Position numbers and translations under genes: made by a program. The notes beneath the pieces are model-generated. The model was not told the origin of the DNA and ran no database searches. It saw nothing but the letters and a program-made list of their open reading frames with translations. A stretch of DNA of 64,000 nucleotides from Candidatus Xenobia bacterium (GTDB taxonomy: Bacteria; Vulcanimicrobiota; Xenobia; Xenobiales; QWHO01): contig BTUM01000025.1 of NCBI GenBank assembly GCA_045863235.1, positions 23,022-87,021 on the forward strand. Direction: 5' to 3'. How positions within the stretch are numbered: the stretch's first letter is position 1; each line of letters opens with the position of its first letter. Below, one piece after another: positions 14,571 through 32,569 of this stretch.

Positions 14571-14620
14571 GAAGACCACTCGGGGGGGGAATTTCTGACC
14601 CCGAATGTGAGGAAAACAAG

Positions 14621-15289
14621 ATGAGTCGCTGGCTCTCGATCGACCCCGACCTGAAGGTGGTGCTGCCCGATGGCACGCTGCGCCCCATGAGCGACTACGA
14701 GTGGCCCACGGTGGTGCTGATGCTGGCCAGCTTGCTGCTGACTATCTCCCTCTTCGTCCCCTACTGGAGTCTCACCATGAAGGCCCCTCAGTATCCGCAG
14801 GGTCTGAAGGCGACCCTCTTTATCAACCGCGTCGAAGGGGACGTTGAGGAGATCGATGGCCTGAACCACTACCTGGGCATGCCGTCGCTCAACGAGGGGG
14901 GAAAGATCGAGCGCCAGATCTCGTTTCTGGCCGTGGTGGTGATGGCCAGCCTGGTGCTGGCGGCAGTGCTGGTGCACAACCGCTGGGCGGCCGTGCTGGC
15001 CCTCCCCTCGATCATCTTCCCGATTCTCTTCCTGGCAGACCTGAAATACATCCTGTATACCTACGGCCACAGCATCGATCCCCACTCGGCCCTGGGCCAG
15101 GCCATCAAGCCGTTCACCCCCCCCATCCTGGGCGAGGGCAAGATCGGCCAGTTCGTAACCCTGGCCGAGTGGGGACCTGGCCTGTACCTGACCATGGCTG
15201 CTTCGGTGCTGGTGATTTTCGGTCTCTACCTGCACCGCCGGGCCTACCGGGCGGTCTCGCAGGCGCGCAAGCGGGTGAACGCAAAGTGA
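14621..15289 (+). CDS. nosB: NosB-type membrane protein of clade II nos clusters
   Basis: PYW.L...APQYP.GL, EIDGLNHYLGM, YGH..DP, PFTPP..G; directly after nosZ. Confidence 0.8.
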   Translation: MSRWLSIDPDLKVVLPDGTLRPMSDYEWPTVVLMLASLLLTISLFVPYWSLTMKAPQYPQGLKATLFINRVEGDVEEIDGLNHYLGMPSLNEGGKIERQISFLAVVVMASLVLAAVLVHNRWAAVLALPSIIFPILFLADLKYILYTYGHSIDPHSALGQAIKPFTPPILGEGKIGQFVTLAEWGPGLYLTMAASVLVIFGLYLHRRAYRAVSQARKRVNAK

Positions 15290-17481: not shown

Positions 17482-17552
17482 GGTGGAGTGCTGGAGGACA
17501 TTTCGCGCTGACGGACTTGCCCAACGGAGGGTCAACAGATGAGGAGACGGTC

Positions 17553-18383
17553 ATGGAAATGAGCATCGTGCTGGCCATCGCGGCCAAAGAGATCAAAGAC
17601 GCCACCCGGAACCGCTGGTTCTGGCTCTACACGGCCGCCTTCGCTCTGCTCAGCTCGGCCCTGGCGGCGGCCGCGCTGCTCGGCTCAGGCTTTGGAGGGT
17701 TGGCCGGATTCGGGCGTACCACCGCCAGCATGATCAACCTGGTGCTGCTGATCGTGCCCTTGATGGGCCTGACCGCCGGCACCCTGAGCATGGCTGGCGA
17801 GCGCGAGCGCGGCACGCTGGCCTACCTGATGGCCCAGCCGGTGAGCCGATTCGAGGTCTTCTGGGGCAAGTTCGCCGGCCAGGTGGTGGCCCTGGTGAGC
17901 AGCCTGGTGCTCGGGTTCGCTCTCAGCGGCGGCCTGGTCGCCTGGCGGGGGGGCGCGGCCCAGAGCGCGCTCTATTTGACCCTGCTGGCGCTCAGCGCCA
18001 TGCTGGCGGTGGCCAGCCTGGGCCTGGGATTCTTGATCTCGGTGCTGGTGCGCCGCGCCTCGGCGGCCTTCGCGATCTCGGTGGTGACCTGGCTCGGCCT
18101 GGCCTTCCTGGCCGACCTGACCTTGCTGGGAATGGCCTCGGGGATGCGCCTGGGCGCCCAGCAGCTCTTTCACCTGAGCCTGCTCAACCCGCTGGAGGCC
18201 TTCCGGATGGCCAGCATCTTCTCGCTGCGCTCCAGCCTCGATTCGCTCGGTCCGGCCGGGCTGTATGCCACCCGCACTTATGGCTCGGCCACCCTGGCCC
18301 TGTTCATTGGGGCGCTGGCACTCTGGGCCTGCCTGCCCGCCACCCTGTCTTACGCGGTGTTTCGACGCCGTAGCATCCTGTGA
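17553..18383 (+). CDS. nosY: NosY ABC permease
   Basis: KEIKD..RNRW, ERERGTL..L.AQP.SR, LLNPLEAFR; SD GAGGAG before ATG 17553. Confidence 0.88.
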   Translation: MEMSIVLAIAAKEIKDATRNRWFWLYTAAFALLSSALAAAALLGSGFGGLAGFGRTTASMINLVLLIVPLMGLTAGTLSMAGERERGTLAYLMAQPVSRFEVFWGKFAGQVVALVSSLVLGFALSGGLVAWRGGAAQSALYLTLLALSAMLAVASLGLGFLISVLVRRASAAFAISVVTWLGLAFLADLTLLGMASGMRLGAQQLFHLSLLNPLEAFRMASIFSLRSSLDSLGPAGLYATRTYGSATLALFIGALALWACLPATLSYAVFRRRSIL

Positions 18384-18395
18384 GGTGAACGAGCC

Positions 18396-18824
18396 TTGAG
18401 AGAGCTGTTGTTGATCGCTTTGTTCTTGTCCGGGTGCGCGGCCGCCCCGGCCAACGGCCCGCCCGAGATTCGCTACGGGCAGGATGAATGCTCGCGCTGC
18501 CGCATGATCGTCGACCAGCCCCGATTCGCCGCTGCCACCCGGCTCGGTGAGGAGGTACGGGTGCTCGACGATCTGGGAGAGCTGTTCGAGCCCCCCGGCC
18601 TGCGGCCGGGTGAGCTGGCCTGGGTGCACGACGCCGAGAGCCAGCAGTGGATCGACGCTCGCTCGGCCTACTACGTCCGTTGTGAGGGGCTGAAAACCCC
18701 TATGGGATACCGATTTCTGGCGACCGGCTCGGCCCCCCAGGCCGAGCTTCTGGCCGCTCGCTATCGGGGAAGAATCCTCCGCTTCGAGCAAGCTCGGGCG
18801 GAAATCGAAGGAGAAAGCCAGTGA
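18396..18824 (+). CDS. nosL: NosL copper-chaperone lipoprotein
   Basis: Lipobox LSGC; C..C.M.V, DDLG, TPMG motifs. Confidence 0.88.
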   Translation: MRELLLIALFLSGCAAAPANGPPEIRYGQDECSRCRMIVDQPRFAAATRLGEEVRVLDDLGELFEPPGLRPGELAWVHDAESQQWIDARSAYYVRCEGLKTPMGYRFLATGSAPQAELLAARYRGRILRFEQARAEIEGESQ

Positions 18825-19246
18825 AACAATCGCTCATCTTATCGCTGCTGGCCGCCTCATTGGCGGCGGCAGGGTGCTCGAGCCCACCAAGCTCGACCGA
18901 CACCACCTCGACCCCGACCGCGACGGGCACCACCGCCGCGACCTCGACACCCGCTCCGGTGGCCAGGGCCGCCGATCCGGCCAAAGGCAAGACCGCCTAC
19001 GACGGCACCTGCACCGCCTGTCACGGTCCCGACGGCAAGGGCGTCGAGGGGCTGGGCAAGCCGCTGGTGGGCAGCGCCATGCTGGGGTTGAAAGATGAGG
19101 ACCTGGTGGCTTTCATCGTCAAGGGCCGGCCTCCCACCGATACCGCCAACACCACCGGCATCGACATGCCGCCCCGGGGCGGCAACCCGGCTCTGACCGA
19201 TCAGGACATCGCCGATGTCGTGGCCTATATGCGCACCTTGAAGTAG
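18821..19246 (+). CDS. Monoheme cytochrome c lipoprotein (likely electron donor to NosZ)
   Basis: Lipobox AAAGC, Thr/Pro linker, CTACH, distal MPPRGG. Confidence 0.9.
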   Translation: MKQSLILSLLAASLAAAGCSSPPSSTDTTSTPTATGTTAATSTPAPVARAADPAKGKTAYDGTCTACHGPDGKGVEGLGKPLVGSAMLGLKDEDLVAFIVKGRPPTDTANTTGIDMPPRGGNPALTDQDIADVVAYMRTLK

Positions 19247-19522: not shown

Positions 19523-20893
19523 TTGCCCGGGGGTGGTCGTACGTTGACTCCCACTAGCTGGCTGAGGCTGGTCGTGCTGGTGCTTGTGCTGCTCTCGTCG
19601 GCCCCGGCTCAGGAGAGCGTTCTGACCCTGGAGCAGGCCATTGATCTCGCTCTGCAGGGGAACCGCAAGATTCAGAGCGCTCGCCTGGCGGTGGAACGAA
19701 ACGACCACCTGCTCCAGGCGGCTGAGGCCCAGCGACTGCCGAGTTTCAGCCTGCAGGCCAACCACCAGCGCCAGCTCGAAGACCAGAACTTCGTGTTCCA
19801 GCAGGGAAGCCTGGGTACCTACAGCATCGGGCCTATCCCCTCTCAGGACACGGTCGTGGCCGTTCTGAGCGGCTCGATCACGACCTATCAGGCCCAGGTG
19901 GCCCAGCCTCTCACCGGTCTTTACAAGCTCAACCTGGGAGTGGACCTGCAGCAGGGCGAGCTGGAGGTGGCCCGGGAGGAGGAGCATCTCCAGCGGCTTC
20001 AGACCGTACTGGAGGTTCGCTCGGCCTACTACGCCCTGCTCGATACGCAGAGCGGCCTGGTGGCAGCCCGCGACGGGGTGGAGTTTCTCACCGAGCTCGA
20101 GCGGGTGATGGGCGAGTTCGTCCGCGAGAAGGTGGCTCTGAAGGCCGACCTGCTGGAGGTGCAGGCTCGTCGCCTGGAGGCCCAGGCCCAGGTGCTGCAG
20201 CTCGAGAACGCCCTCCAGACCCGGTGCGAGCAGCTCAATTTGTTGCTGGGTCGAGAGCTGGCCACGCGCTTTTCGGTCGTGGACCCGCTGGTGACTCGGA
20301 GGCCCTCCCCGCCGCTCGAGAGCCTGCAGCAGAAAGCCCTCTCGGGACGCCCCGAGTTGCGCCAGGCCGACATCCGCGTGCAGCAGGCCGAGCAGCAGCG
20401 GGACCTGAAGGCCGCCGACTGGATTCCCGATGTCAATCTGGCCTTTCAGTATCAGCGCTTCTCCGACAGCGGCATTCTTCCCGATCAGGTGATCTCGGTC
20501 GGCCTGCAGGCCGAGTGGGAGCCCTGGGACTGGGGCCGGCGAGGTCACCAGGCGGCCGCCCACAGCGCAGGCCTGGAGGCCGCGCGAAGATCCCAGGCCG
20601 AGGCTCGTGACCAGATCGTGCTGGAGGTCAACGCCAAATACCGCCAGTTGAGCGAGCTGCGGGCGGGAGAAGCCGCGGCTCGGGTGGCCCGCGAGGCCGC
20701 CGAGGAGCGGCTGCGCGTGGCCACCAGCCGCTTTCTGCTCAAGGCTGCCCTGCTCAAGGACGTGCTCGAGGCCCAGGCCCAGCTCTCCCGCGCTCAACGC
20801 GACTACCGCAAGGTGGTGCTCGACTGCGCCACCGCCGAGGCAGAGCTCGAGCGGGCCGTGGGCCAGCCGCTGGCCGAAGGGGGGGCTCCGTGA
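19523..20893 (+). CDS. TolC-family outer-membrane efflux protein
   Basis: Signal peptide, LTLEQAIDLAL..N, two helical repeats; first gene of a TolC-MFP-RND operon; start uncertain. Confidence 0.88.
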   Translation: MPGGGRTLTPTSWLRLVVLVLVLLSSAPAQESVLTLEQAIDLALQGNRKIQSARLAVERNDHLLQAAEAQRLPSFSLQANHQRQLEDQNFVFQQGSLGTYSIGPIPSQDTVVAVLSGSITTYQAQVAQPLTGLYKLNLGVDLQQGELEVAREEEHLQRLQTVLEVRSAYYALLDTQSGLVAARDGVEFLTELERVMGEFVREKVALKADLLEVQARRLEAQAQVLQLENALQTRCEQLNLLLGRELATRFSVVDPLVTRRPSPPLESLQQKALSGRPELRQADIRVQQAEQQRDLKAADWIPDVNLAFQYQRFSDSGILPDQVISVGLQAEWEPWDWGRRGHQAAAHSAGLEAARRSQAEARDQIVLEVNAKYRQLSELRAGEAAARVAREAAEERLRVATSRFLLKAALLKDVLEAQAQLSRAQRDYRKVVLDCATAEAELERAVGQPLAEGGAP

Positions 20894-22323
20894 GAAGAGT
20901 GCTCCTTTGTGCGCTGGCTCTCTGGCTCTGCGGTTGCTCGGGTCCGCCCCCTCCTCCCTCGGGCAAGGCCGCCACGCTGGTGCAGGTCGAGAAGCTCGAG
21001 GAGCGGGCCAGCACGGCCGGTGGGGAGCGCTACAGCGCCAGCGTCGAGCCTTCCACCCGGGTGGTGGTCAACTTCAACTCCGGGGGCTACGTGGAGAGCG
21101 TGCGCCGGGTGGGCGACCGCTTGATCCAGCCGGGCGATCCGGTGAAGAAGGGCGAGGTCCTGTGCAGCCTGCGAGCCGTCGACTTCTCCTCGCGGCTCGA
21201 GCAGGCCGGTGCTCAGGTGGGCCGGGCCGAGGCTCAGGAGCAGGACGCCCGGGCCCAGATCGAAGAGGCCCGGGGAGGCAGTCGCCTGGCCCGGGGACAG
21301 TTGACTGAAGCACGTGGGGCTGAATCTCAAGCCCGCTCAGCCCTGGGCGAGCTCGAGGCAACCCTGGCCCAGGCCCGCGAGGCCGTGCGTGAGGCGCGCG
21401 CTGCCACCGAGCTGGCCCGAACCAACCTGGAGCGCTCTCAGAGCCTGTTCGAGTCGGGCTCGCTGGTCAAGCCGGAGCTCGACCAGGCCCGTTTCAATCA
21501 CCAGCAGGCCAGCGTGCGCCTGGCTCAAGCCGAGGAGCAGCTCAAGGGGGCGCAGTCGCGACTGGCCCAGGGGAGGGCCCAGGTCGAGCAGGCTCGGGGC
21601 CGGGTGGAGCAAGCCTCCGGACAGGTGGAGGTGAGCCTGGCCAGGGAAAAGCGCTCGACGGCCGGAGTCCAGGCGGCCAGCTCCGATCTCGAGTCGGCCC
21701 GGGCCCAGTGGGAGCAGACCCGCCTGGCCCAGATGGATGCCTCGCTCAAAGCTCCGATGGACGGTGTCCTCCTGAGCCGCAGCGTGGAGGTGGGAGCCCT
21801 GGTGGCGCCTGGCGCGCCGGGCTTTGAGGTGGCCGAGGTGAGCCAGGTGCGCGTCACGTTCGGGGTTCCCGACCTGGAGGTGGCCGAGCTCAAGCTCGGA
21901 CAGAGCGTCACCATCGGCACGCAGTCGCTGCCCGGAGAGAAATTCCAGGGGCGGGTCAGCACCATCTACCCCGAGGCCGATCCGCAGAGCCGGGTGTTTC
22001 GAGTCGAGGTCAAGGTGAGCAATCCGGACCAGAAGCTGAAGGTGGGCATGATCGCTTCGCTCTACCTGGGCGGCGGTGCTCAGAGCGTTCTCACCATCCC
22101 CATCGCGGCCATCGTCCGCCGGCCGGACGCAAGAGACAAGTTCTCGGTCTACGTGCTCGAGCGTCAGGGTGGGCGAAGCATCGCCCGTCTGCGGCCGGTG
22201 GAGCTCGGCGATCCGACCGGCGACCGCATGATCGTGGTCTCGGGCCTGAAGCCCGGGGATGAGGTGATCGCCGCCGGCTCCAACATGATCTCCGATGGCG
22301 AAGAGGTCACGGTGCAGCCCTGA
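20890..22323 (+). CDS. RND membrane-fusion protein with a long coiled-coil hairpin
   Basis: Lipoprotein-like N-terminus; GDPVKKGEVL, LKAPMDG, ADPQSRVF.V, LKVGM, SGLKPGDEVI. Confidence 0.9.
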   Translation: MRRVLLCALALWLCGCSGPPPPPSGKAATLVQVEKLEERASTAGGERYSASVEPSTRVVVNFNSGGYVESVRRVGDRLIQPGDPVKKGEVLCSLRAVDFSSRLEQAGAQVGRAEAQEQDARAQIEEARGGSRLARGQLTEARGAESQARSALGELEATLAQAREAVREARAATELARTNLERSQSLFESGSLVKPELDQARFNHQQASVRLAQAEEQLKGAQSRLAQGRAQVEQARGRVEQASGQVEVSLAREKRSTAGVQAASSDLESARAQWEQTRLAQMDASLKAPMDGVLLSRSVEVGALVAPGAPGFEVAEVSQVRVTFGVPDLEVAELKLGQSVTIGTQSLPGEKFQGRVSTIYPEADPQSRVFRVEVKVSNPDQKLKVGMIASLYLGGGAQSVLTIPIAAIVRRPDARDKFSVYVLERQGGRSIARLRPVELGDPTGDRMIVVSGLKPGDEVIAAGSNMISDGEEVTVQP

Positions 22324-25300
22324 TGAGCCACGGCCGCTCCGACGAAGAGCTCATCGCAAGCACCCACAACTCCTCGCGCTTTTTTGTCGAGCAGCGACAG
22401 ATCGCCTGGGTGCTGCTGATCTTCACCATTCTTGGAGGGCTCTACGGCTTCCGGGCCATGCCTCAGCGCAAGGACCCGGACATCCCGGTGCGGCGGGCCG
22501 TGGCCCTGATCCCCTGGCCCGGCAACTCGGCCGAGCGAGTGGAGCAGCTCGTGACCAGGCCGGTCGAGGAGGCGGTCTCCCAGAACACCTACGTGACCGA
22601 AGTCGAGTCTATCTCGCGCACCAATCTCAGCATCGTCTACCTCGATCTCGACGAGAACCTCGAGGATACTGGCAAGCAGTTCGATGACGTCAAGATGAAG
22701 CTCGAGGGGGTGCAGCTCCCGGCCGGGGCGGGCCCGATCCAGTTCGTCAAAGACTTCGGGGATACGGCCGCCCTGATGCTGACCGTGGCCAGCCCCCCCC
22801 TCTCCGACCAGGAGATCGAGCTGCGCTCTCAGGCCATCGAGCGGGCCATCCGCGAGCATCGGGGCAAGGCCGCTGCCGACCCGGCCCGCTTCACGCTGGT
22901 GGCCTGCTTCCCCGAGTCGACCGACGAGCGCCTGCTCGCCCTGGTGGTGGCCGACTTCCTCTCCTTCACCCGCGAGCGTGGGGTGGCCAGCGACCTGAGC
23001 GTCTTCGGCGGGCCGGGCTACGTGGCCGTGGATGGTCGTTCCAAACTGTCTGACGAGGCGCTGCTTGGCCATCTGCTCACCTTTACCCAGGAGCGGCTCA
23101 AGCTCGAGGAGCTGCACCCCGACCTCTGGGAGGCGGCCGTGATCCGCACGCCCTCCGAGACGCGCGAGAAGCTGGCTCTGGTGGCGGGAGACAAGTACAG
23201 CTATCGCGAGCTCGACCAGCTGACCGAGGCCCTGGCTGACCGGCTGCGCACCGTTCCCGATGCCACCAAGGTGGAGCGCGCCGGGGTGCTCGAGGAGCGC
23301 ATCTTTCTGGTCTACAGCCAGGAGCGCCTGGCCAGTTACGGCATGAGCGTGGCCGGCCTGGCTGACCTGCTCGGCGCGCGCAACATCGCAACCGGTGGGG
23401 GAGAGACCCAGAGCGGGGGCAGCGTGGTTCCCCTGGCTCCCTCCGGTGAGTTCCGCAGCGAGAAAGAGATCGGCGACGTGGCCATCGCCCAGGAGAAGGG
23501 CTCCCCCGTCTACCTGCGCGACCTGGTCAGCATCGATCGCTCCTACGAAAGCCCGGCCACCTACCTCAACTTCCTCACCTGGCGTGACGACAAGGGTGTG
23601 TGGCACCGCAATCGGGCCATCACGCTCACGGTGCAGATGCGGCCCGGCAAGAAGATCGGCGACTTCGGCCGCGAGGTGGACGAGGTGCTCGCGGCCGCCA
23701 GCCGCGAGCTTCCCCCTGACCTGATCATCCGGCGCACCTCCGATCAGCCGCTTCAGGTAACCGAGAACATCAGCCTCTTCATGCGCTGCCTGCTGGAGGC
23801 CATCGCGCTGGTGGTGCTGATCAGCCTGGTGGGGTTCTGGGAGTGGCGCTCGGCCCTGGTCATGGCCCTGGCCATCCCCATCACCCTGGCCATGACGTTT
23901 CTTTTCATGGCGGTCTGCGGCATCGACCTGCAGCAGGTCTCCATCGCCGCTCTGATCCTGGCTCTGGGGCTCCTGGTGGACGACCCGGTGGTGGCCGGGG
24001 ACGCCATCAAGAACGAGCTGGGACGAGGGCATCCCCAGGCCATCGCCGCCTGGCTGGGCCCCACCCGCCTCGCCACGGCCATCCTCTATGCCACCATCAC
24101 CAACATCGTGGCCTATCTCCCCTTCCTGCTCTTGAGCGGCGACACGGGGCGGTTTTTGTACAGCCTGCCGGTGGTCATCACCTGCTCGCTGGTCGCCTCG
24201 CGGCTGGTCTCCATGACCTTCATCCCTCTGCTGGGCTACTACTTGTTGCGCCCCACCCGCGAGCTTCCCGTGCACCAGCGTCGGGAGCACGGCTACGCCC
24301 GGGTCTACTACCGGGTGGCCCGCTGGTGCGTCACCCACCGCTGGCGGGTGATGGCCCTCTCGGGCCTGCTGCTGGCCCTGGGCGCAGGTCTCTTCTTGCA
24401 GCTCGAGACCCAGTTCTTCCCCAAGGACCTGCAGTATCTGTCCTATCTCGAGCTGCGACTGCCCATGGACCGCACCCTGGTCAGCACCAACCGCGAGGCC
24501 CTCCAGGCCGAGCAGCTGGTGCGGGAGGCGGCCAGCGAGCTGGAGGCTCGCCTGGGACGCAAGGTGCTCAAGAACATGACCACTTTCCTGGGAGGAGGGG
24601 GCCCGCGCTTCTGGTTCTCGGTGGAGCCCGAGCTCAAGCAGCTCTACTATGCCCAGATCATCATTGAGGTCGAGGACAAGCGCGATACCGTGCCGCTTCT
24701 GGAGGCCGTCAGCGCCCGCACCGACCGGGCTTTCCCCGGGGTGCAGGTGGATGCGCGCCAGCTCGAGACCGGCAAGCCCATCGGTGTGCCGGTAGCCCTG
24801 CGTCTCACCGGCCAGGACCTGCACCAGCTGCGCGCTGCCGCCGAGCAGCTCAAGAGCCTGCTCAGAAAGTGCCCCCTGGCCACCCGGGTGCGCGACGACT
24901 GGGGCGAGGAGGGGATGGTGCTCGAGGTCGTGACCGATTCCGACCGGGCCAACCTGGCCGGGGTGACCCATCTGGACGTGGCCCAGTCTACCGCCGCTGC
25001 CCTGAGCGGCACTCCGGTCACGGTGCTGCGCGAGGGGGACCGCCAGATCCCGGTGGTGGCCCGGATGCGGATGGACGAGCGGGCCCAGCTGTCCGACCTT
25101 CGTAACCTGTACGTCTATTCCAGCCAGGGTCAGCAGAAGGTGCGGCTCGGCCAGGTGGCTCTGGTCGAGCTCAAGCTCGAGCCCCAGATGGTCCGCCGGC
25201 GGCGCTTCGCGCGGGCCCTGACGGTGGGGGCCTTTCCGATAGCCGGCCACCTGCCTTCCGAGATCATCCGGGCCATCGAGCCCGAGCTGAAGGAGCTGCG

Positions 25301-25970
25301 CCTGGGCCCGGGGGTCAAGCTGGAGGTGGCCGGCGAGCAGGAGGAGCAGCAGAAGAGCTTTGCCGAGCTGGCAGTGGTGATGGCCATCAGCATGGCCGGG
25401 ATCTTCCTGGCTCTGGTCTTTCAGTTCAAGAGTGCGCTCAAGCCCATCTTAGTATATGCGGGCATCCCCTTCGGCTTCGTGGGAGCCATCGCCGCCCTGT
25501 GGGTGATGAATTCTCCTTTCGGGTTCATGGCCTTCCTGGGCATCGCCGCCCTGGTGGGCGTGATCGTGAGCCACATCATCGTTCTGTTTGATTACATCGA
25601 GGAGATGCAGGCCGAGGGCGCCTGCTTCATGGACGCCCTGCTCGACGCGGGCATGGCCCGCCTGCGGCCGGTGCTCATCACGGTGGGGGCCACGGTCTTC
25701 GCGATGTTCCCGCTGGTCCACAGCGGCGGCCCGCTGTGGGAGCCGCTCTGCTACACCCAGATCGGCGGGTTGACCGTGGCCACCTGTGTCACGCTGCTGC
25801 TGGTTCCGGTCATGTACTCCATCTTTGTCCTGGATTGGAAGATCCTCCGCTGGGAGGGCCCCCTGCTGCCGGCTGAGCCAGCCCCTGAAGCCGTTGAGTC
25901 TGTTGCACCCGAGGGCGCAGAGCCGGCCCCGGAAGCTGCCAAGCCTGAGCCCGAGGCAGGTGAGCCCTGA
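22323..25970 (+). CDS. RND (AcrB/AcrD/AcrF family) efflux permease, 1215 aa
   Basis: RND topology; GLLVDDPVV, RLRPVLIT, QFFP motifs. Confidence 0.92.
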   Translation: MSHGRSDEELIASTHNSSRFFVEQRQIAWVLLIFTILGGLYGFRAMPQRKDPDIPVRRAVALIPWPGNSAERVEQLVTRPVEEAVSQNTYVTEVESISRTNLSIVYLDLDENLEDTGKQFDDVKMKLEGVQLPAGAGPIQFVKDFGDTAALMLTVASPPLSDQEIELRSQAIERAIREHRGKAAADPARFTLVACFPESTDERLLALVVADFLSFTRERGVASDLSVFGGPGYVAVDGRSKLSDEALLGHLLTFTQERLKLEELHPDLWEAAVIRTPSETREKLALVAGDKYSYRELDQLTEALADRLRTVPDATKVERAGVLEERIFLVYSQERLASYGMSVAGLADLLGARNIATGGGETQSGGSVVPLAPSGEFRSEKEIGDVAIAQEKGSPVYLRDLVSIDRSYESPATYLNFLTWRDDKGVWHRNRAITLTVQMRPGKKIGDFGREVDEVLAAASRELPPDLIIRRTSDQPLQVTENISLFMRCLLEAIALVVLISLVGFWEWRSALVMALAIPITLAMTFLFMAVCGIDLQQVSIAALILALGLLVDDPVVAGDAIKNELGRGHPQAIAAWLGPTRLATAILYATITNIVAYLPFLLLSGDTGRFLYSLPVVITCSLVASRLVSMTFIPLLGYYLLRPTRELPVHQRREHGYARVYYRVARWCVTHRWRVMALSGLLLALGAGLFLQLETQFFPKDLQYLSYLELRLPMDRTLVSTNREALQAEQLVREAASELEARLGRKVLKNMTTFLGGGGPRFWFSVEPELKQLYYAQIIIEVEDKRDTVPLLEAVSARTDRAFPGVQVDARQLETGKPIGVPVALRLTGQDLHQLRAAAEQLKSLLRKCPLATRVRDDWGEEGMVLEVVTDSDRANLAGVTHLDVAQSTAAALSGTPVTVLREGDRQIPVVARMRMDERAQLSDLRNLYVYSSQGQQKVRLGQVALVELKLEPQMVRRRRFARALTVGAFPIAGHLPSEIIRAIEPELKELRLGPGVKLEVAGEQEEQQKSFAELAVVMAISMAGIFLALVFQFKSALKPILVYAGIPFGFVGAIAALWVMNSPFGFMAFLGIAALVGVIVSHIIVLFDYIEEMQAEGACFMDALLDAGMARLRPVLITVGATVFAMFPLVHSGGPLWEPLCYTQIGGLTVATCVTLLLVPVMYSIFVLDWKILRWEGPLLPAEPAPEAVESVAPEGAEPAPEAAKPEPEAGEP

Positions 25971-26722
25971 GACGGCGCCTCGGCTTGCTGGCACTCGGCC
26001 TCCTGTTGACCTGGGTGCCCGGCCCGGTGACGGCCGACCCGTCGAGCGATCAGGTCCACCAGCTCGACGGCTCGACCCTGGTGCTGGTTCCGGCCGGGAG
26101 CTTTCTCATGGGCTCGAGCGCGGGCTCTCTGGATCAGCGTCCCGCCCGCCAGGTCAAGCTGCCCGCTTACTACATCGGCAAGCACGAGGTGACCAACCAG
26201 CAGTTTCGCAGGTTTCTCCAGGCCACCGGGACACCCGCCCCCGAGTCCTGGGCCCGGGCTGCCGACCGCTGGGGGGAGAGGGCCCCGGCCCTCTATCTTT
26301 CCTACTTCGATGCCCGGGCCTATTGCGACTGGGCCGGGCTGCGACTTCCCGACGAGGCGGAGTGGGAGCGGGCCGCCCGGGGCACCGATGGCCGTCGTTT
26401 TCCTTGGGGCAATGCCTTCGAGCTCACGCGCTGCCAGTGTGCCGCCGAGGGACCGGCCCCGGTGGACGCCCACCCCGAGGGAGCCTCGCCCTCGGGCTGT
26501 CTGGACATGGCCGGCAACGCATGGGAGTGGACCGACTCGTGGTATGACGCCTATCCTGGCTCGAGCTGGCGCTGCGATGAGTTCGGGAAGAAATTCCGGG
26601 TGCTGCGCGGAGGCTGCTGGCAGCATCGCAGCGCGGACTTTCTGGCAGTCTCCCAGCGCAGCTACAACCTGGCCGCCTCGCGCCTGGAGCCCTCCGGCTT
26701 TCGGGTGGCCCGCAACCTGTGA
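25967..26722 (+). CDS. Secreted FGE-sulfatase (SUMF1/EgtB/PvdO) domain protein
   Basis: VPAGSFLMGS, EVTN.QF, RLP.EAEWERAARG, DMAGNAWEW, VLRGG.W, GFR; lacks the catalytic Cys pair of true FGE; start CTG 25967 or TTG 25985. Confidence 0.85.
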   Translation: MRRRLGLLALGLLLTWVPGPVTADPSSDQVHQLDGSTLVLVPAGSFLMGSSAGSLDQRPARQVKLPAYYIGKHEVTNQQFRRFLQATGTPAPESWARAADRWGERAPALYLSYFDARAYCDWAGLRLPDEAEWERAARGTDGRRFPWGNAFELTRCQCAAEGPAPVDAHPEGASPSGCLDMAGNAWEWTDSWYDAYPGSSWRCDEFGKKFRVLRGGCWQHRSADFLAVSQRSYNLAASRLEPSGFRVARNL

Positions 26723-26729
26723 TGGAAGT

Positions 26730-26743
26730 TTGATGCTCATCAT
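26730..26743 (+). promoter_or_regulatory. Crp/Fnr-type box TTGAT-GCTC-ATCAT upstream of the radical SAM cluster
   Basis: 23 nt to -10-like CAGGCT (26767-26772). Confidence 0.55.
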
Positions 26744-26788
26744 AGCCGCCCGGGGGAGGGGTCCCTCAGGCTGGCGCAATCATGGCTC

Positions 26789-26895
26789 TAAAGTGCAAGG
26801 CCTTTGGTTTTGCACTTTACAACGCGCTGGAACGCAGTTCCGGCGCGTTCGTCAGATTGTGCTAATGTGCAAAACCAAAGTGCGAGCACATTAGC
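26789..26895 (+). promoter_or_regulatory. Structured leader: three hairpins plus an alternative 14-bp long-range stem (candidate RNA switch or paired operator)
   Basis: TAAAGTGCAA/TTGCACTTTA; AACGCGCTGGAAC/GTTCCGGCGCGTT; GCTAATGTGC/GCACATTAGC; CTTTGGTTTTGCAC(26802)/GTGCAAAACCAAAG(26867). Confidence 0.55.
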
Positions 26896-27991
26896 CGCAG
26901 TCACCTCCAGGCCCTTCTCGTCCCGGCTGGTCGCCGTGGTCAAGCTGGTCGAGGCGTGCAACCTGGCTTGTGCTTACTGCTATCAGTCCGGACGCCTCAA
27001 CGCCGGCCAGGTCATGGAAGATCAGACCCTGGGTCGGGTGCTCGCCGAGCTTCACCGGGTGACCTCGGGTCCGGCCAGCCTGCTCTGGTATGGCGGCGAG
27101 CCGACCCTGGTTGGCCTGGGCAGGTTCTCGGCCATCGTCGCCCGGGCCGACGAGCTTTTTTCGCGACGGGGTGGGGTCGCCCACTCGCTGCAGACCAACG
27201 CAGTGTTGATCGACGAGGAGTGGGCCGACTTTCTGGCTTGCAGGAGCTTCGGGGTCTCCTTGAGCCTGGATGGGCCGGCCCAACTGCACGATGCCGCCCG
27301 TCCCAGGGCCGGCGGCGCGGGTAGCCATGCGGCTGTCGAGCGGGCGCTCGGTTGCCTGCAGAGGGCCGGGTTGAAGCCTCGGGCAGCCTGCGTGGTCGAC
27401 CGCCACACGCTGGACTTCCCCGAGTTGCTGGTCGACTATTTTCACTCTCTGGGGCTCCACGAAATCGACTTTCCTCCGGCCCTGCGGGCCGGGCCAGGGG
27501 GCCTGGAGGCCCGCGTCACAGCCCTGGAGTATGGCCGCTTTATGACGCGCGTCCTGGATAGGTGGCTGGCCCTGGGCCAGCCGAATTTTCGCATCCGCAG
27601 CCTGGCCGGAGTGGTTCGCAAGCTGGCTGGCCTGTCGAGCTCTGTGTGCAAGCTGGAAGGTGACTGCTCGAGTTACGTCACCTTCGCGCACAACGGCGAT
27701 GTGTACCCTTGCGACGAGTTTTCGGCTTTCCCCGAGACCCGCCTGGGCAACGTGCGCGAGAGCCCCCTGGACTCGATCCTCGCAGCCCCCGAGGCCCGGA
27801 CGCTCTACTCGTCCTGGGCTGTTGTGCCCGAGGAATGCTCGGATTGTCGCTGGAGAGAGATGTGCCGTGGCAGCTGCCCGTTCGAGCGGAAGATGGCCGG
27901 CGGGGTCGATCGTCCTTCCATCCTGTGCGACGGCCTCAAACTGATCTTCGAGCGGGTCGACGACATCCTTCGGGCCGCCCGGAAAACATGA
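26867..27991 (+). CDS. Radical SAM/SPASM protein, anSME/GrrM-like
   Basis: CNLACAYC, WYGGEP, QTNA, SLDGP..LHD..R; SPASM CKLEGDC...NGDVYPC...CSDC...CRGSCP...C; start uncertain (ORF open from 26804). Confidence 0.9.
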   Translation: MQNQSASTLAAVTSRPFSSRLVAVVKLVEACNLACAYCYQSGRLNAGQVMEDQTLGRVLAELHRVTSGPASLLWYGGEPTLVGLGRFSAIVARADELFSRRGGVAHSLQTNAVLIDEEWADFLACRSFGVSLSLDGPAQLHDAARPRAGGAGSHAAVERALGCLQRAGLKPRAACVVDRHTLDFPELLVDYFHSLGLHEIDFPPALRAGPGGLEARVTALEYGRFMTRVLDRWLALGQPNFRIRSLAGVVRKLAGLSSSVCKLEGDCSSYVTFAHNGDVYPCDEFSAFPETRLGNVRESPLDSILAAPEARTLYSSWAVVPEECSDCRWREMCRGSCPFERKMAGGVDRPSILCDGLKLIFERVDDILRAARKT

Positions 27992-28001
27992 CTATCGTCA
28001 G
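27988..28001 (+). promoter_or_regulatory. Crp/Fnr-type box ATGAC-TATC-GTCAG upstream of the 552-aa orphan gene
   Basis: 23 nt to -10 TACGAT (28025-28030); SD GGAGG then ATG 28065. Confidence 0.6.
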
Positions 28002-28064
28002 AGACTTCCCTGGCTGATTCTTGCTACGATGTCCCAAAGGCCATCGGAGGGAGCTTGATTTGCT

Positions 28065-29723
28065 ATGGACTTGACCAGCCTGGGACGACCCTTCCTGAAT
28101 CCCCAGAACCCGGCGCCGAGCGAGCAGGCGCAGTACCTTCGCCTGTTGATCCAATCGTCAGGATCCGAGCAGCTTAAGAAAATGGTTTCCGAGAACCAGC
28201 TCGGCGATGATGAGCTGGTTCAGTTCATCATGGAGCACCCCGAGGAGCTGCAGGGCCCCCGCGGTCAGGGCAGCGCCTTTGCCTTCGCCGTGGCCGGGAG
28301 CAGCAAGGCCAGCGCCACGAGCTCGGCTTCCTCGGCCTCCTCGGCTGCGCCCGGCGACTCCTTCTCGGCCTCCGAGGAGGATGACGAGGGCGACTCCGAC
28401 CTCAAGCCGTTCAGCCAGGACGAGACCATGGCCGCGCCCTCCATGTGCGCGATGGGCGGGGTCAGCTCAGCCGACAAAGCCAAGCCCGAGATGCAGCAGA
28501 ACCTCAAGGAATGCAAGGCCATCTCCAAGGCCCTGAGCGAGCTTCAGAGCCAGGACGAGGAATCGGGCTCCTCCGGGCTCTCGGCGGCCGTGGCCGAGCT
28601 GCGCTCCAAGGAGCAGATCATTCGCTCGTGCCTCAAGCGGGGCAAAGGGGCGGCCAACGATTCCTACCAGTCGCAGGGGGTGGATCCCAAGGACGAGGCG
28701 GCCGTATCCAGCTTCGTGGCCCGCATCGGCAAAGAAGTGATCGACATCGGGATGAAGTGCGGCCTGGAGATTGAGGTCTCCGAGAAGCGTGCCAGCCGAC
28801 TTCAGGCCGGTGGTCTCAATCCTGGCGGTGCTGCTGCTGCTGCTGCTGAGGGCCCCGGGAACGGCAAGAACGGTGCCACCGTCCAGGGCGCAGACAAGGG
28901 TAAGGCGCCGGGAGGCCCTCAGGAGAAGACGCAGGGGGCCAACCAGGGCCAGGGCGGCGAGGGTGATGACGACGTCTTCCAGATCACCACCCAGAAGACC
29001 GAGAAGCAGATCGAGGTGGGAGCCGACGAGGTGGCCTCCAACCCGGCCATGGCCGGAGCCATGATCGACCAGCTCACCGCCATGTGGGAGCAGAAGCAGC
29101 AGCTCGGCGATGCCTTCCAGGCGCCGGCGGTGCTCGACCTGGGCGAGACCCGGCAGGGAAGTCCGCTCGACCAGGCCTTCTCGGCCCCCCGTCCGGGGGG
29201 CCCGGGAGAGAACGGCCAGCAATCGGCCGGTCCAGCCGGGCCGGGTGCGGGTGGCCCAATGGCAGCCCCTGCTCCCTGGCCGAGCACCAACGGTGCCAAC
29301 GGCGGGGCCCCGGTGGCACCGACCGGGGCCCGGCCCATGCCGGCCGGCGGGGCTGGTGCTGGTCGGGCCCCGCGCGACCTGCAATCGCTCATGGCCGCGC
29401 TGGGCATGTCGGGCAAGAAGTTCGCCGCCAAGATCCACGTCTACGATCCCAACGCCCAGGTCAGCCTGAGCAAAGGCGGGGGCGGGGGCGGGGTCAAGGT
29501 GAACGGCAACCTGAGCGGCAAAGCGATCAACGTCAAGATCCCCAAGATGGTGGGACGGGCCGCCGATGGCTCGATGCACGCCCTCTCCGGCCTGAGCCGG
29601 GTAGACAACGGTGGGAGCTTCCTCGCCTCCATCCGGGGCGAGGCCACCGGCGCCGAGGCCGCCAAGCAGCTGCACACCACCGGGAATGGATCGATCTCCA
29701 TCCCGGGCACCAAAGCCAACTGA
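28065..29723 (+). CDS. 552-aa low-complexity Ser/Gly/Ala/Gln-rich orphan protein; candidate substrate of the flanking radical SAM enzymes
   Basis: Good SD, GC3-rich codons, sits between rSAM genes, 18 nt from the next gene; no recognisable enzyme motif. Confidence 0.75.
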   Translation: MDLTSLGRPFLNPQNPAPSEQAQYLRLLIQSSGSEQLKKMVSENQLGDDELVQFIMEHPEELQGPRGQGSAFAFAVAGSSKASATSSASSASSAAPGDSFSASEEDDEGDSDLKPFSQDETMAAPSMCAMGGVSSADKAKPEMQQNLKECKAISKALSELQSQDEESGSSGLSAAVAELRSKEQIIRSCLKRGKGAANDSYQSQGVDPKDEAAVSSFVARIGKEVIDIGMKCGLEIEVSEKRASRLQAGGLNPGGAAAAAAEGPGNGKNGATVQGADKGKAPGGPQEKTQGANQGQGGEGDDDVFQITTQKTEKQIEVGADEVASNPAMAGAMIDQLTAMWEQKQQLGDAFQAPAVLDLGETRQGSPLDQAFSAPRPGGPGENGQQSAGPAGPGAGGPMAAPAPWPSTNGANGGAPVAPTGARPMPAGGAGAGRAPRDLQSLMAALGMSGKKFAAKIHVYDPNAQVSLSKGGGGGGVKVNGNLSGKAINVKIPKMVGRAADGSMHALSGLSRVDNGGSFLASIRGEATGAEAAKQLHTTGNGSISIPGTKAN

Positions 29724-29741
29724 GCCGGGGAGGGTCGAGCC

Positions 29742-30719
29742 GTGCCTGAGATCATCTGTCTCGAGGTCACCAACCGCTGCAACCTCGATTGCGTGCACTG
29801 CAACAAGCAGGTCAACCAGCACCCCATCCGGGACATCCCGGTCGACCTGGTGGACAGCATCCTCGAGCAGGCCCGGCCCTTCAGCCCGAGGGTGGTGGCC
29901 CTGACCGGGGGCGAGCCCACCACCCACAAGCAGTTCGAGGAGCTGGTCGCCACCATCGCTCGCCACGACTACGGCTATACCCTGGTGACCAACGGCCAGA
30001 ACTTCCGCGAGAGCCACAAGGTGCTGCTGCGTCACAGCAATCGGCTGCTGGGTGTAACCTTCAGCCTGGAGGGGGCGACGAGCGAGACCAACGACCCAAT
30101 TCGGGGCCCCAACACCTTCGACCGGCTGATGGATGCTCTGGAGCTTTGCCGCCGCCATGGTCTGAGTTTCGGCCTGCAAACCGTGCTCAGCACCCGCAAC
30201 GTGGGCGAGATGGATGCCCTGGTCGAGCTGGCCGTCGCCCAGGGAGTCGATCAGCTCAATTTCATCCTGATGCGGCCGGCCCCCCGTCCCATCGAGGAAG
30301 GGCTGATGCTCGACCTGGAAGCAGCCGAGGCCGTCGAGAAGAAGGTGGCTGACCTTCGCAAGAACGAGCGTCGCATCAAGGTGGACATGACCACCGGCTA
30401 TTTCTCCCCCCAGCCCCTGTACGCGTGCCGCCCGCTGGGGATGACCATCATCAGCATCGACTACAACGGCTACCTGCGCTTTTGTCCCGATATCTCCAAC
30501 TATCGGGGCGCTGGTTGCGCCGAGGATGATACCGATGTCATCGCCGATCTGGCCATGCGCCCCTTGCAGTGGGCTTTGAAGGCGCTGTCCAACCGCATCG
30601 CCCTGTTCTGGCAGAACAAGATCGACTACACGGTGATGGACGACCTGGCTCCCACCGACTTCTTCCCCTGTTACTACTGCCTCCGTTACTTCAACAAGGC
30701 TGACTGTCTGGACGTTTAA
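29742..30719 (+). CDS. Radical SAM protein with a Twitch-like auxiliary cluster domain
   Basis: CNLDCVHC, TGGEP, TNG, SLEG...ND.IRG; C-terminal C-x18-C...CYYC. Confidence 0.9.
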   Translation: MPEIICLEVTNRCNLDCVHCNKQVNQHPIRDIPVDLVDSILEQARPFSPRVVALTGGEPTTHKQFEELVATIARHDYGYTLVTNGQNFRESHKVLLRHSNRLLGVTFSLEGATSETNDPIRGPNTFDRLMDALELCRRHGLSFGLQTVLSTRNVGEMDALVELAVAQGVDQLNFILMRPAPRPIEEGLMLDLEAAEAVEKKVADLRKNERRIKVDMTTGYFSPQPLYACRPLGMTIISIDYNGYLRFCPDISNYRGAGCAEDDTDVIADLAMRPLQWALKALSNRIALFWQNKIDYTVMDDLAPTDFFPCYYCLRYFNKADCLDV

Positions 30720-30723
30720 ACAG

Positions 30724-31827
30724 TTGTACGGCAGCGAGCAGATCTGCTTTTCCACCCGCAAGCCCCGCGACAGCTGGCTCTCGGTGGGTCCCGATGGGGA
30801 GCGACCGGGCCCCAACAAGGCGGTGCTGGAGATTACGCGAGCCTGCAACATGCGCTGCCTGCACTGTGCCTCCGCGGCCGGCACGGTGCGTCCCAACGAG
30901 CTGAGCACCGAGCGGATGCTGACCCTCATCGACGAGCTGCACGAGCTGGGCGTGGAGGACATGGTCTTCTCCGGGGGCGAGCCGCTGGTGCGCAAGGACT
31001 GGCCTGTTCTCGCGGCCCGGGTGCGAGGCCACGGCATGAGCCTGGGCATGGTGTCGAACGGGACCTTCGCTCTGCGTCACATGCACCACATCCGCGAGTA
31101 TCTGACGGCCTACTCGATGAGCCTGGACGGCATGGAGGAGACCCACAACCACATCCGCTGCAGCCCTACCGCCTTTTCCGACGTCTTCGCCGCCTTCGAC
31201 GAGTTGGCCGAGCATGACGTCTACCGCTTCGCCGTCACCTCGATCTCCAAGCTCAACCTGCACCAGCTCGAGGACATGTACCGGCTGCTGGTCGAGCACG
31301 ACGTGGTGGGCTGGCAGGTGCAGCTGGTCTTCGCCTCCGGTCGCATGCGCGAGCGAGAGGAGCTCATCTGCTCGCCCGAGGACCTCTATCGGATCACCGA
31401 ATTTCTGGCCCGGGTCCGGGACGAGTCGCTGCTCGAGCTGCACACCGGCGACAACATCGGCTACTACACCGCCCTGGAGGACACGGTGCGCGGCTGCACC
31501 TGGAGAGGCTGCCAGGCGGGTCTGTCGTTGATCAGCATCGAGGCCGATGGCAACGTCAAAGGATGCCTGTGTCAGGAGCCGGAGCTTCGCGAGGGCAAGA
31601 AGTTCGTGGAAGGCAACGTGAACCACCGCCCCATCGCCGACATCTGGCGAGACGACAGCCTGTTTGCCTACAATCGCCAGTTTGACCTGGGCCAGGCCCG
31701 GGGCTTTTGCGCCAGCTGCCGCCACCTCAAGCTGTGCCGCTGCGGCTGCACGGCCTTTGCCCACTATGTCTCCGGGACCAAGTACAACAACCCGTACTGC
31801 CTTTATCGCCTGATGGCGACAACCTGA
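30724..31827 (+). CDS. Radical SAM/SPASM peptide maturase, PlpX (splicease)/GDL-associated-like
   Basis: EIT.ACNMRCLHC.S.AG, WQVQL...GR, GDNIGYY, W.GCQAGLS.I.IEADG.VKGC, GFC..C....LCR.GC...AH, NNPYC. Confidence 0.85.
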   Translation: MYGSEQICFSTRKPRDSWLSVGPDGERPGPNKAVLEITRACNMRCLHCASAAGTVRPNELSTERMLTLIDELHELGVEDMVFSGGEPLVRKDWPVLAARVRGHGMSLGMVSNGTFALRHMHHIREYLTAYSMSLDGMEETHNHIRCSPTAFSDVFAAFDELAEHDVYRFAVTSISKLNLHQLEDMYRLLVEHDVVGWQVQLVFASGRMREREELICSPEDLYRITEFLARVRDESLLELHTGDNIGYYTALEDTVRGCTWRGCQAGLSLISIEADGNVKGCLCQEPELREGKKFVEGNVNHRPIADIWRDDSLFAYNRQFDLGQARGFCASCRHLKLCRCGCTAFAHYVSGTKYNNPYCLYRLMATT

Positions 31828-31828
31828 C

Positions 31829-32569
31829 ATGGCCTGGTACGACGAGGACTACTTCGAGGAAGACTACTTCTTGCTCGAGGAGCCGACCGACCTCGAAACC
31901 ATCGCCCACGTCGCCTTTCTGAGGTCTTTCCTGGAAGAGGGGGCCCTGGAGGTGCTCGACCTGGCCTGCGGCTCGGGGAGGCTGTCGCTGGCCCTGGCTC
32001 GGCTCGCTCACAGGGTCACCGGGCTGGACGCAAGCCCGCGGATGATCGAGCGGCTTGGGGCCGAGGCGACCCGAGTCGGCCAGTCGGTCGAGACGGTCTG
32101 CCAGGACATGCGTACGCTCGCCTTTCAGGCCCGCTTCGACCTCGTGCTCAGCTTCGCTCACTCGTTCGGCTACTTCCGAGACGAGGAGAACCTGGCCGTG
32201 CTGCGTGGCGTCCAGCGCTCGCTCAAGAGCGGCGGCCGCTTCCTGCTCGATCTGGCCAACCGCGAGAGCCTGTTGCATGATTTTGACCGGCACGCCCGGC
32301 GCTGGATTGTGAAGAAGGGGAACTACATCATGTTTCGCCGCGAGATGGACCCTTTGACCGGTCGCCTGGACTCCTACGTCACCCTCCTGCGCGAAGGGGG
32401 ACTGGCCCGCGAGCACACCACCTCGGTCCGCTACTACGCCTATCCCGAGCTCAAGCTCATGCTGCAACAGGCGGGCCTGGGCATTCTCGAGGTCTACGGC
32501 AGCTACGAGCGCACTCCCTACTCGTTCTCGAGCCCGCGCATGGTCGTTCTGGCAGAGCGGCCGGGGTGA
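31829..32569 (+). CDS. Class I SAM-dependent methyltransferase
   Basis: VLDLACGSGR, GLD.S, QDMR.L, SFGYF, LK.GGRFLLD; starts 1 nt after the rSAM stop. Confidence 0.9.
   Translation: MAWYDEDYFEEDYFLLEEPTDLETIAHVAFLRSFLEEGALEVLDLACGSGRLSLALARLAHRVTGLDASPRMIERLGAEATRVGQSVETVCQDMRTLAFQARFDLVLSFAHSFGYFRDEENLAVLRGVQRSLKSGGRFLLDLANRESLLHDFDRHARRWIVKKGNYIMFRREMDPLTGRLDSYVTLLREGGLAREHTTSVRYYAYPELKLMLQQAGLGILEVYGSYERTPYSFSSPRMVVLAERPG

Follow-up and report, generated by a model that had tools for sequence, protein, structure and literature searches.

What is modified by a gene cassette that joins radical S-adenosylmethionine (SAM) enzymes and a methyltransferase to one large protein of no recognizable family? 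The question is raised by positions 26730 to 32569 of a 64 000-nucleotide stretch of Candidatus Xenobia bacterium DNA (GenBank assembly GCA_045863235.1, contig BTUM01000025.1, positions 23 022 to 87 021, forward strand), hereafter the window, from the genome designated G000. The original prediction described a five-gene cluster in which three distinct radical SAM proteins (rSAM1, rSAM2 and rSAM3) and a class I methyltransferase, built around a 552-residue orphan, modify a full-size protein or a cryptic peptide. Coordinates bear out five co-oriented open reading frames (ORFs) separated by 73, 18, 4 and 1 nt, and a Pfam scan confirms the enzyme classes, with Radical_SAM and SPASM domains in rSAM1 and rSAM3, Radical_SAM alone in rSAM2 and Methyltransf_25 in the methyltransferase. 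Of the cluster itself, a four-gene core of 4.5 kb stands, conserved in every one of eight loci; rSAM1 precedes the orphan in only two of these (the window and L001). On sequence grounds, it is judged somewhat probable that the core is a Crp/Fnr-controlled system, induced under anoxia, that modifies the orphan at an invariant loop. Its features in the window are as follows.

28065..29723, + strand: orphan, core gene 1; 552 aa, new family, candidate substrate.
29742..30719, + strand: rSAM2, core gene 2; 325 aa, radical SAM protein of the single auxiliary-cluster type.
30724..31827, + strand: rSAM3, core gene 3; 367 aa, SPASM radical SAM protein, splicease-related.
31829..32569, + strand: methyltransferase, core gene 4; 246 aa, class I.
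27988..28030, + strand: Crp/Fnr class II-type promoter of the orphan; box ATGAC-N4-GTCAG at 27988-28001, -10-like TACGAT at 28025-28030.

The order orphan, rSAM2 (one or two copies), rSAM3 and methyltransferase is kept in all eight loci, which span three Eremiobacterota lineages and comprise the window, L001-L004 (the same contigs as genomes G106, G046, G074 and G082), L012 (G035), L016 and L017. Gene order is hence conserved across lineages in related genomes, as the original prediction anticipated. The orphan, an rSAM3 orthologue (at least 74% identity) and a methyltransferase orthologue (at least 61%) occur in the same five of 44 class genomes; rSAM2 is found in those five carriers plus G035, that is, in six of 251 phylum genomes, and the orphan is likewise present in G035 (one of seven genomes examined). 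Pairwise identities of the four core proteins fall into the same three blocks (Spearman 0.72-0.93), the kin compared not being independent, and those of the orphan range from 29 to 95%, with 29-34% between far lineages. Named homologues of the orphan and rSAM2 belong to Candidatus Eremiobacterota/Vulcanimicrobiota, and the carriers belong to a group of bacteria from sludge and sediment that has received little study. The longest contigs of matches to the orphan, rSAM2 and rSAM3 are equal in length (4375 and 12342 nt), which hints at additional cassette loci. Contigs from the RNA libraries X2 and X18 also overlap parts of the cassette (in X18, the rSAM2, rSAM3 and methyltransferase of a relative), though contigs cannot show transcription and a lack of coverage elsewhere carries no weight. 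The cassette is real and conserved, and the prediction of an undescribed radical SAM and methyltransferase system around a large orphan is supported within the literature searched, most subscription papers, including a 2022 survey of splicease-type enzymes, lying outside the reach of that search.

No second substrate accompanies the core. The eight loci contain 3924 frames of at least 20 aa, and apart from the core genes not one of these is common to the three lineages; nor is a substrate-supplying or ligase gene conserved in the fetched flanks. Because no other such frame is shared, the orphan stands alone as a conserved candidate substrate, and the cryptic short peptide proposed earlier finds no conserved counterpart. 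As had been noted from the sequence, the operon holds no classical short precursor, and the Pfam scan finds no RiPP (ribosomally made, post-translationally modified peptide) recognition element (RRE) or PqqD domain, peptidase or sulfatase among the five proteins; no RRE is conserved nearby either. The surroundings of the cassette vary. In three loci it belongs to an island that also contains nosZ, nirK or a nitrate-reductase-like gene, and in L012, L016 and L017 it is surrounded by housekeeping genes. These last three have two copies of rSAM2, and in them the methyltransferase is followed by a gene for an Rce1-like CPBP protease (three of eight loci); the same protease query has no match in G000, G046, G074 and G082. 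A 'triple rSAM' form therefore does exist, in another lineage and via rSAM2 duplication.

The orphan is a new protein family by sequence, as first supposed: it has no Pfam or NCBIfam match, and alignment scans that included PDB sequences gave nothing meaningful. Homologues number 12 proteins in a first search and eight representatives among 1.84 billion sequences, and the gene is single copy in G000, where profiles of five orphan segments reveal no paralogue and no likeness to Tyr-Gly precursors. No signal peptide (Sec) or membrane helix is found in the full-length members. An AlphaFold2 model built on 15 aligned rows (mean predicted local distance difference test, pLDDT, 61; predicted template modelling score 0.45) shows a small helical N-terminal domain (18-63), an acidic/Ala linker, an invariant loop (E120-P141), a three-helix bundle (135-234), a mid alpha/beta part (302-375), a Gly/Pro linker and a C-terminal beta domain (436-530), both linkers being unstructured. 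Searches with the whole model yield no known fold: Foldseek gives nothing at E of 0.001 or below and VIA a best Z of 7.4 to a designed three-helix bundle, the domains not having been folded singly, while the ESM Atlas gives no usable match to the whole protein or to residues 430-552. A likeness of the N-terminal domain to Nif11 or nitrile-hydratase leaders is unsupported by Pfam, NCBIfam and PDB-sequence scans.

The feature of the orphan that stands out is the loop itself, a 22-residue stretch encoded at nt 28422-28487, just before the three-helix bundle. Its motif, E-x-M-x5-C-x-M-x3-S-x2-D-x2-K-P, occurs in all 14 of the rows that cover it, fixing E120, M122, C128, M130, S134 and D137, and the only invariant cysteine and both invariant methionines of the protein fall within 120-141. 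Residues 126-150 form the most conserved window, in which nine of 39 columns are invariant across 10 non-redundant rows. In the model, residues 124-130 have pLDDT below 50 and constitute a low-confidence loop. A prediction of the complex of rSAM2, rSAM3 and orphan residues 100-255 scored 0.00, which is evidence neither way. The orphans P0014 and L016, of the clade with duplicated rSAM2, contain seven and six cysteines respectively, versus one to four in most others; P0012 of the same clade has three.

rSAM3 has the more telling ancestry of the two core radical SAM enzymes. Its best NCBIfam models are the PlpX-type TIGR04103 (208.6 bits, cut-off 725) and TIGR03913 (203.5, cut-off 591.75), and equivalog cut-offs are reached by none of the five proteins; a relative in L074 that is linked to Tyr-Gly precursors scores 216 and 211.5 on the same models, so the cut-offs fail to separate it from rSAM3. 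The nearest relatives with known context outside the cassette (42-49% identity) adjoin long precursors with 2-12 Tyr-Gly repeats (MYG or LYG), and a more distant group linked to such precursors includes a locus of G000 itself on contig C60. Xaa-Tyr-Gly is the splicease target, at which the described enzymes excise tyramine (PMC11414181, PMC11626197, PMC11002830). In trees, the cassette rSAM3 clade (SH-aLRT 100) sits on a long stem (0.88-0.98) as sister to the near precursor-linked group (support 85-93), and a single clade of both precursor-linked groups is rejected (approximately unbiased (AU) test, p-AU 5e-5). Loci L054-L056 were tagged as lacking Tyr-Gly in one tree only as they are short, the longer L074, L075 and L079 showing precursors. 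Of the columns fixed in both precursor-linked groups, the cassette clade retains 52 and has substitutions in 11, including W35, which lies on the strand that leads into CX3CX2C, and G49, immediately behind that motif, a position proximal to the catalytic site (PMC10288494). From these comparisons, rSAM3 is read as a putative splicease descendant with a changed substrate. Conserved Tyr-Gly in rSAM2, rSAM3 or the methyltransferase was also considered as a target; it is either not conserved or generic to the methyltransferase family. rSAM3 begins M-Y-G (30724-30732) in this genus and in P0123, matching the splicease target motif, probably by chance; other members do not share this start.

Spliceotide-type loci are themselves numerous in Eremiobacterota, where long precursors with 2-12 MYG or LYG cores lie beside PlpX-like radical SAM genes (G000:C60:33381-35076, L057-L059, L065-L071, L074, L075 and L079). 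The C60 precursor of G000 repeats the core PVQALYGVAIGGG five times, and L074, L075 and L079 additionally encode a 740-aa double radical-SAM/SPASM protein.

rSAM2 combines a CX3CX2C motif (C13, C17, C20) with auxiliary cysteines C229, C248, C310 and C313, the four auxiliary residues among seven cysteines that are invariant in 37 rows; no SPASM domain is matched by Pfam. Its clade (27 matches at 43-92%) stands above a broad family at 27-38%, relatives occur in many phyla, and four of 103 homologues, all distant, carry a C-terminal PqqD/RRE domain. No family member is found in plasmids, and viral contigs give generic radical SAM matches only (best 2e-14). The model (pLDDT 91) is closest in fold to SuiB (Z 26.8, rmsd 3.2, 291 aligned residues), then to SkfB (Z 24.4), BlsE, anSME, PqqE and MoaA, which places rSAM2 in the SPASM/Twitch group as modelled; its exact reaction is not fixed by this. 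Profile classification leaves no footing for a cofactor-biosynthesis alternative of the heme/Ahb kind: the Ahb, Nir and Mft equivalog scores are all far below cut-off, both for rSAM2 (MftC 88.1 against 265, AhbD 77 against 500, MoaA 66 against 325) and for rSAM3 (AhbD 133 against 500, NirJ 115 against 515).

The methyltransferase forms its own clade, confined to cassette genomes. Its top solved matches, NmbA (9RI2; E 7e-29, 104 bits) and CypM, the cypemycin N-terminal methyltransferase (7WZG; 75 bits), show distant similarity only; both are amine N-methyltransferases acting on an alpha-amine, that of NmbA being the cysteine amine of bacillithiol (PMC12719100).

Both Crp/Fnr-type promoters originally seen in the locus are borne out, and the second, that of the orphan, is kept in relatives. 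Its box is followed 23 nt later by TACGAT, and in the window, L001 and L003 the half-sites and position are kept while the spacer differs. In L002 a box with one mismatch lies at this same offset, and in L004 a near-consensus box lies at a similar one; L012, L016 and L017 have no Crp/Fnr-type box before the orphan. With the box consensus we take to define this type, the genome contains, per 30-nt slot, about 0.0003 boxes that have at most two mismatches and are accompanied by TAnnnT. Scanning the genome for box, TAnnnT and gene returns 25 sites, including those of nosZ, of a gene that is presumably nnrS-like and, at the start of C25 (the contig of the window), of a nitrate-reductase-like gene. 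Because the cassette promoter type is common to nosZ, nitrate-reductase-like and nnrS-like genes, expression is likely to be anoxic, as the original prediction proposed, or linked to NO.

A mechanism consistent with these observations would start with low oxygen, under which, to judge by promoter and gene order, the orphan would be co-expressed with rSAM2, rSAM3 and the methyltransferase. Both radical SAM enzymes would then act on the orphan, likeliest at E120-x-M122-x5-C128-x-M130-x3-S134-x2-D137. With its altered pocket, rSAM3 might use radical chemistry on the backbone, by excision or cleavage, at a loop residue other than tyrosine; rSAM2 might oxidize or cross-link Cys128 or a neighbour, through a thioether to Asp, Glu or Met or through dehydrogenation; and the methyltransferase might N-methylate an amine that these reactions or the CPBP protease have exposed. 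Modification of the orphan loop is proposed because the four genes strictly co-occur, no other conserved substrate is present, both radical SAM enzymes are kin to peptide maturases and the loop is invariant and reactive. That the orphan is the substrate appears somewhat probable; that the loop is the modified site is plausible but slightly doubtful, and the specific chemistry assigned to each enzyme is improbable in its details. Tyramine splicing of the orphan, to which a predicted loss of 135.06 Da would correspond, is unsupported and is rejected for want of a conserved Tyr-Gly. A more elaborate and improbable version has rSAM3 editing the backbone at Cys or Met of the loop, with rSAM2 and the methyltransferase building a cofactor or warhead in an orphan exported via a type III or flagellar-type apparatus; full-length FHIPEP genes are present in all five carrier genomes tested. 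FHIPEP (FlhA/SctV) matches number seven to 17 per genome in G000, G046, G074, G082 and G035, one to three being full length and many C-terminal only.

A number of observations weigh against modification of the orphan at its loop. High conservation extends into the helix that follows the loop (Q144, L147, E149, K151), and the conservation peak may mark a binding surface or a metal site with Met/Cys ligands, not a modification site. The orphan is Cys-poor, with zero to seven cysteines per row, and no Tyr-Gly is conserved in it: 12 of 15 rows lack the dipeptide, the other three have it at unrelated places and the orphan of the window contains no Xaa-Tyr-Gly. The Pfam scan detects no RRE on the core enzymes. 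BlsE, anSME and MoaA lie near SkfB in fold score against rSAM2 (Z 22-23.5). The rSAM3 trees derive from quick searches, the groups of the AU test were named after the first tree was seen and 11 of 18 'cassette' rows were labelled by clade, their context not being known. Only three lineages, whose members are not independent, underlie the conservation. Given the BlsE, anSME and MoaA scores and the small-molecule substrate of NmbA, the substrate may not be a protein.

In the alternative that survives best, although unlikely, the product of the enzymes is a small molecule such as a modified thiol, sugar or nucleoside, the orphan serves as its carrier or scaffold or is a co-regulated target, and the Met/Cys loop of the orphan binds this product or a metal. 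rSAM2 resembles BlsE in both sequence (E 4e-9) and fold (Z 23.5), the best solved match of the methyltransferase acts on bacillithiol, none of the five proteins has an RRE, and in L016 and L017 the orphan and rSAM2 are separated by an oppositely oriented gene for a fusion of glycosyltransferase family 9 (GT9) and a methyltransferase. However, the GT9 gene is absent from six of the eight loci and no substrate-supplying or ligase gene is conserved, rSAM3 is nested among enzymes linked to peptide precursors, and relatives of rSAM2 carry PqqD.

Less likely again is a substrate encoded elsewhere, such as a protein bearing Tyr-Gly or a denitrification enzyme, which the orphan would serve as a large factor for activation or recognition, in the way that PlpY serves PlpX. 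Spliceases can work in the absence of a leader and are activated by a helix of a partner protein, but the activators described in the same source are short, not of 550 aa (PMC11414181). The promoter type and, in three loci, the island are common with nosZ, nirK or a nitrate-reductase-like gene, yet L012, L016 and L017 lie among housekeeping genes; the sole multi-Tyr-Gly precursor of G000 has its own splicease-like gene adjacent, and residues fixed in the precursor-linked enzymes are changed in rSAM3.

The remaining features of the locus concern rSAM1 and the genes upstream.

26804-27991, + strand: rSAM1 ORF as called, 395 aa; native ATG at 26782, giving a gene span of 26782..27991; neighbour, not core.
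26730..26772, + strand: Crp/Fnr-type promoter of rSAM1; box TTGAT-N4-ATCAT at 26730-26743, -10 position CAGGCT.
26791..26891, strand not assigned: dispersed repeat of 101 bp resembling a miniature inverted-repeat transposable element, with TA on each side; inserted in rSAM1 codon 3.
25985..26722, + strand: protein with the fold of formylglycine-generating enzyme (FGE)-sulfatase; neighbour, not core.
19523..25970, + strand: TolC, membrane fusion protein (MFP) and resistance-nodulation-division (RND) pump; neighbour within the genus, not core.

rSAM1 is a neighbour with its own promoter and not a cassette member. It is an anSME/DynA-like SPASM protein whose best NCBIfam model, the anSME model TIGR03942, scores 225.5 bits, below the cut-off of 349.45. 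No sulfatase partner is found among the scanned neighbours, nine sulfatase matches lying on other G000 contigs. The sulfatase site motif is, we assume, C/S-x-P-x-R; the orphan loop reads SMCAMGG instead. A second G000 copy of the rSAM1 family, 71% identical, lies on contig C42, and in L003 nirK, an FGE-fold gene and a gene taken to be SCO-like occupy the place of rSAM1. The 101-bp repeat, which has internal palindromes, is present in G000 as 27 near-full copies among 55 matches, many of them decayed. Its insertion in codon 3 of rSAM1 added 103 nt and shifted the frame, so that the frame opened by the native ATG (26782) ends after 27 codons; L001, which has no repeat, reads straight through, and one contig from run X2 likewise spans the empty site. 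As the start codon of the 395-aa ORF lies inside the repeat and L001 and the X2 contig show the empty site, that start is an artefact and the ORF as first called is not the native gene. The -10 position of the rSAM1 promoter reads CAGGCT in the window and TAGGCT in L001. rSAM1 is probably impaired in this genome, while the four core genes are intact. The least likely reading is that rSAM1 nonetheless serves this pathway as a third maturase in certain lineages, as might be suggested by its position immediately before the orphan (in the window and in L001) and by a convergent 50% relative directly after the methyltransferase in L004 (adjacency in two families). Against it, the family occurs in 24 of 44 class genomes, of which most do not carry the cassette; the carriers G074 and G035 (both 97% complete) have no orthologue above 34%; the second copy of G046 is on another contig away from the cassette; Fnr-type boxes separate from that of the orphan serve rSAM1 in the window, in L001 and in L004; and the insertion spares the core. 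The claim that three distinct radical SAM proteins act together is accordingly not upheld.

G012 and other small genomes of family f2 keep a gene of the anSME-like rSAM1 family, and G012 has no PF00884 sulfatase match; that family may therefore have another substrate.

Upstream, the FGE-fold gene and the TolC-MFP-RND pump are positioned as originally described, directly before the locus, and are seen in genus-level relatives only, which removes them from the system. Elsewhere in the window, a clade II nosZ cluster (12487-19246) lies behind an Fnr-type box, with a Sec-dependent NosZ above cut-off and NosD fused to an ABC ATPase, and further Fnr-type boxes precede a phospholipase D gene (33574) and a MauG-like di-heme protein (36297). 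The boxes at nosZ, 33574 and 36297 mark an anaerobic-regulon island. Divergent from the orphan in L002 (8819-9619, - strand) is a gene for a 266-aa protein with about eight GKVVPxGGHIDxxS repeats, absent from the other loci.

Compared with described systems, the cassette resembles protein maturation of the splicease or QhpD type, yet fails both spliceotide criteria, having no Tyr-Gly, and ranthipeptide-type ones, having no RRE and few cysteines. With the spliceotide pathways (PlpX, PcpX and RhaX; TIGR04103, TIGR03913) it shares a SPASM enzyme that best matches their models and whose sister group lies beside MYG-repeat precursors, and, like the binary systems, it has no RRE (PMC11414181). Unlike them, its partner is a multidomain protein of 550 aa without conserved Xaa-Tyr-Gly, rSAM3 falls below the cut-offs with 11 fixed residues replaced, and a second radical SAM enzyme and a methyltransferase are obligatory partners. 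The thioether systems QhpD/QhpC and CrpC/CrpA likewise set a SPASM/Twitch-type enzyme beside a protein-sized partner (PMC13692751), and the invariant C128 of the orphan, a possible donor, has the invariant E120 and D137 near as possible acceptors. The cassette differs in its lack of an RRE, in an orphan that is Cys-poor with one invariant cysteine, unlike CrpA or QhpC, in an rSAM2 with one auxiliary-cluster motif and no match to a ranthisynthase model, and in its use of two enzymes plus a methyltransferase. anSME, which acts on proteins under anoxia, provides the best model for rSAM1 alone, and rSAM1 differs from it in its sub-cut-off score, the lack of a sulfatase in the locus and its position outside the core. 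Phospeptin and pythonamide, Eremiobacterota RiPPs, come from the same phylum and involve unusual maturases and a methyltransferase acting on a ribosomal product, but their precursors and enzymes differ, and the orphan matches neither nitrile-hydratase nor Nif11 leaders (PMC9259500).

The partner of rSAM3 lacks the usual tyrosine site, and its chemistry may thus be new. Radical SAM enzymes that modify full-size proteins are, to our knowledge, rare. Action on large proteins does have precedent in QhpD and CrpC (PMC13692751). A splicease-derived rSAM3 whose partner has no Tyr-Gly, accompanied by an amine methyltransferase and the uncharacterized rSAM2 family, points directly towards novel reactions on the protein backbone that would be of use in protein engineering, although the chance that this backbone chemistry is new is judged low. 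If modification of the orphan by the core enzymes is true, it would also provide a first function for the widespread rSAM2 family, whose relatives occur in many phyla and are in some cases fused to an RRE.

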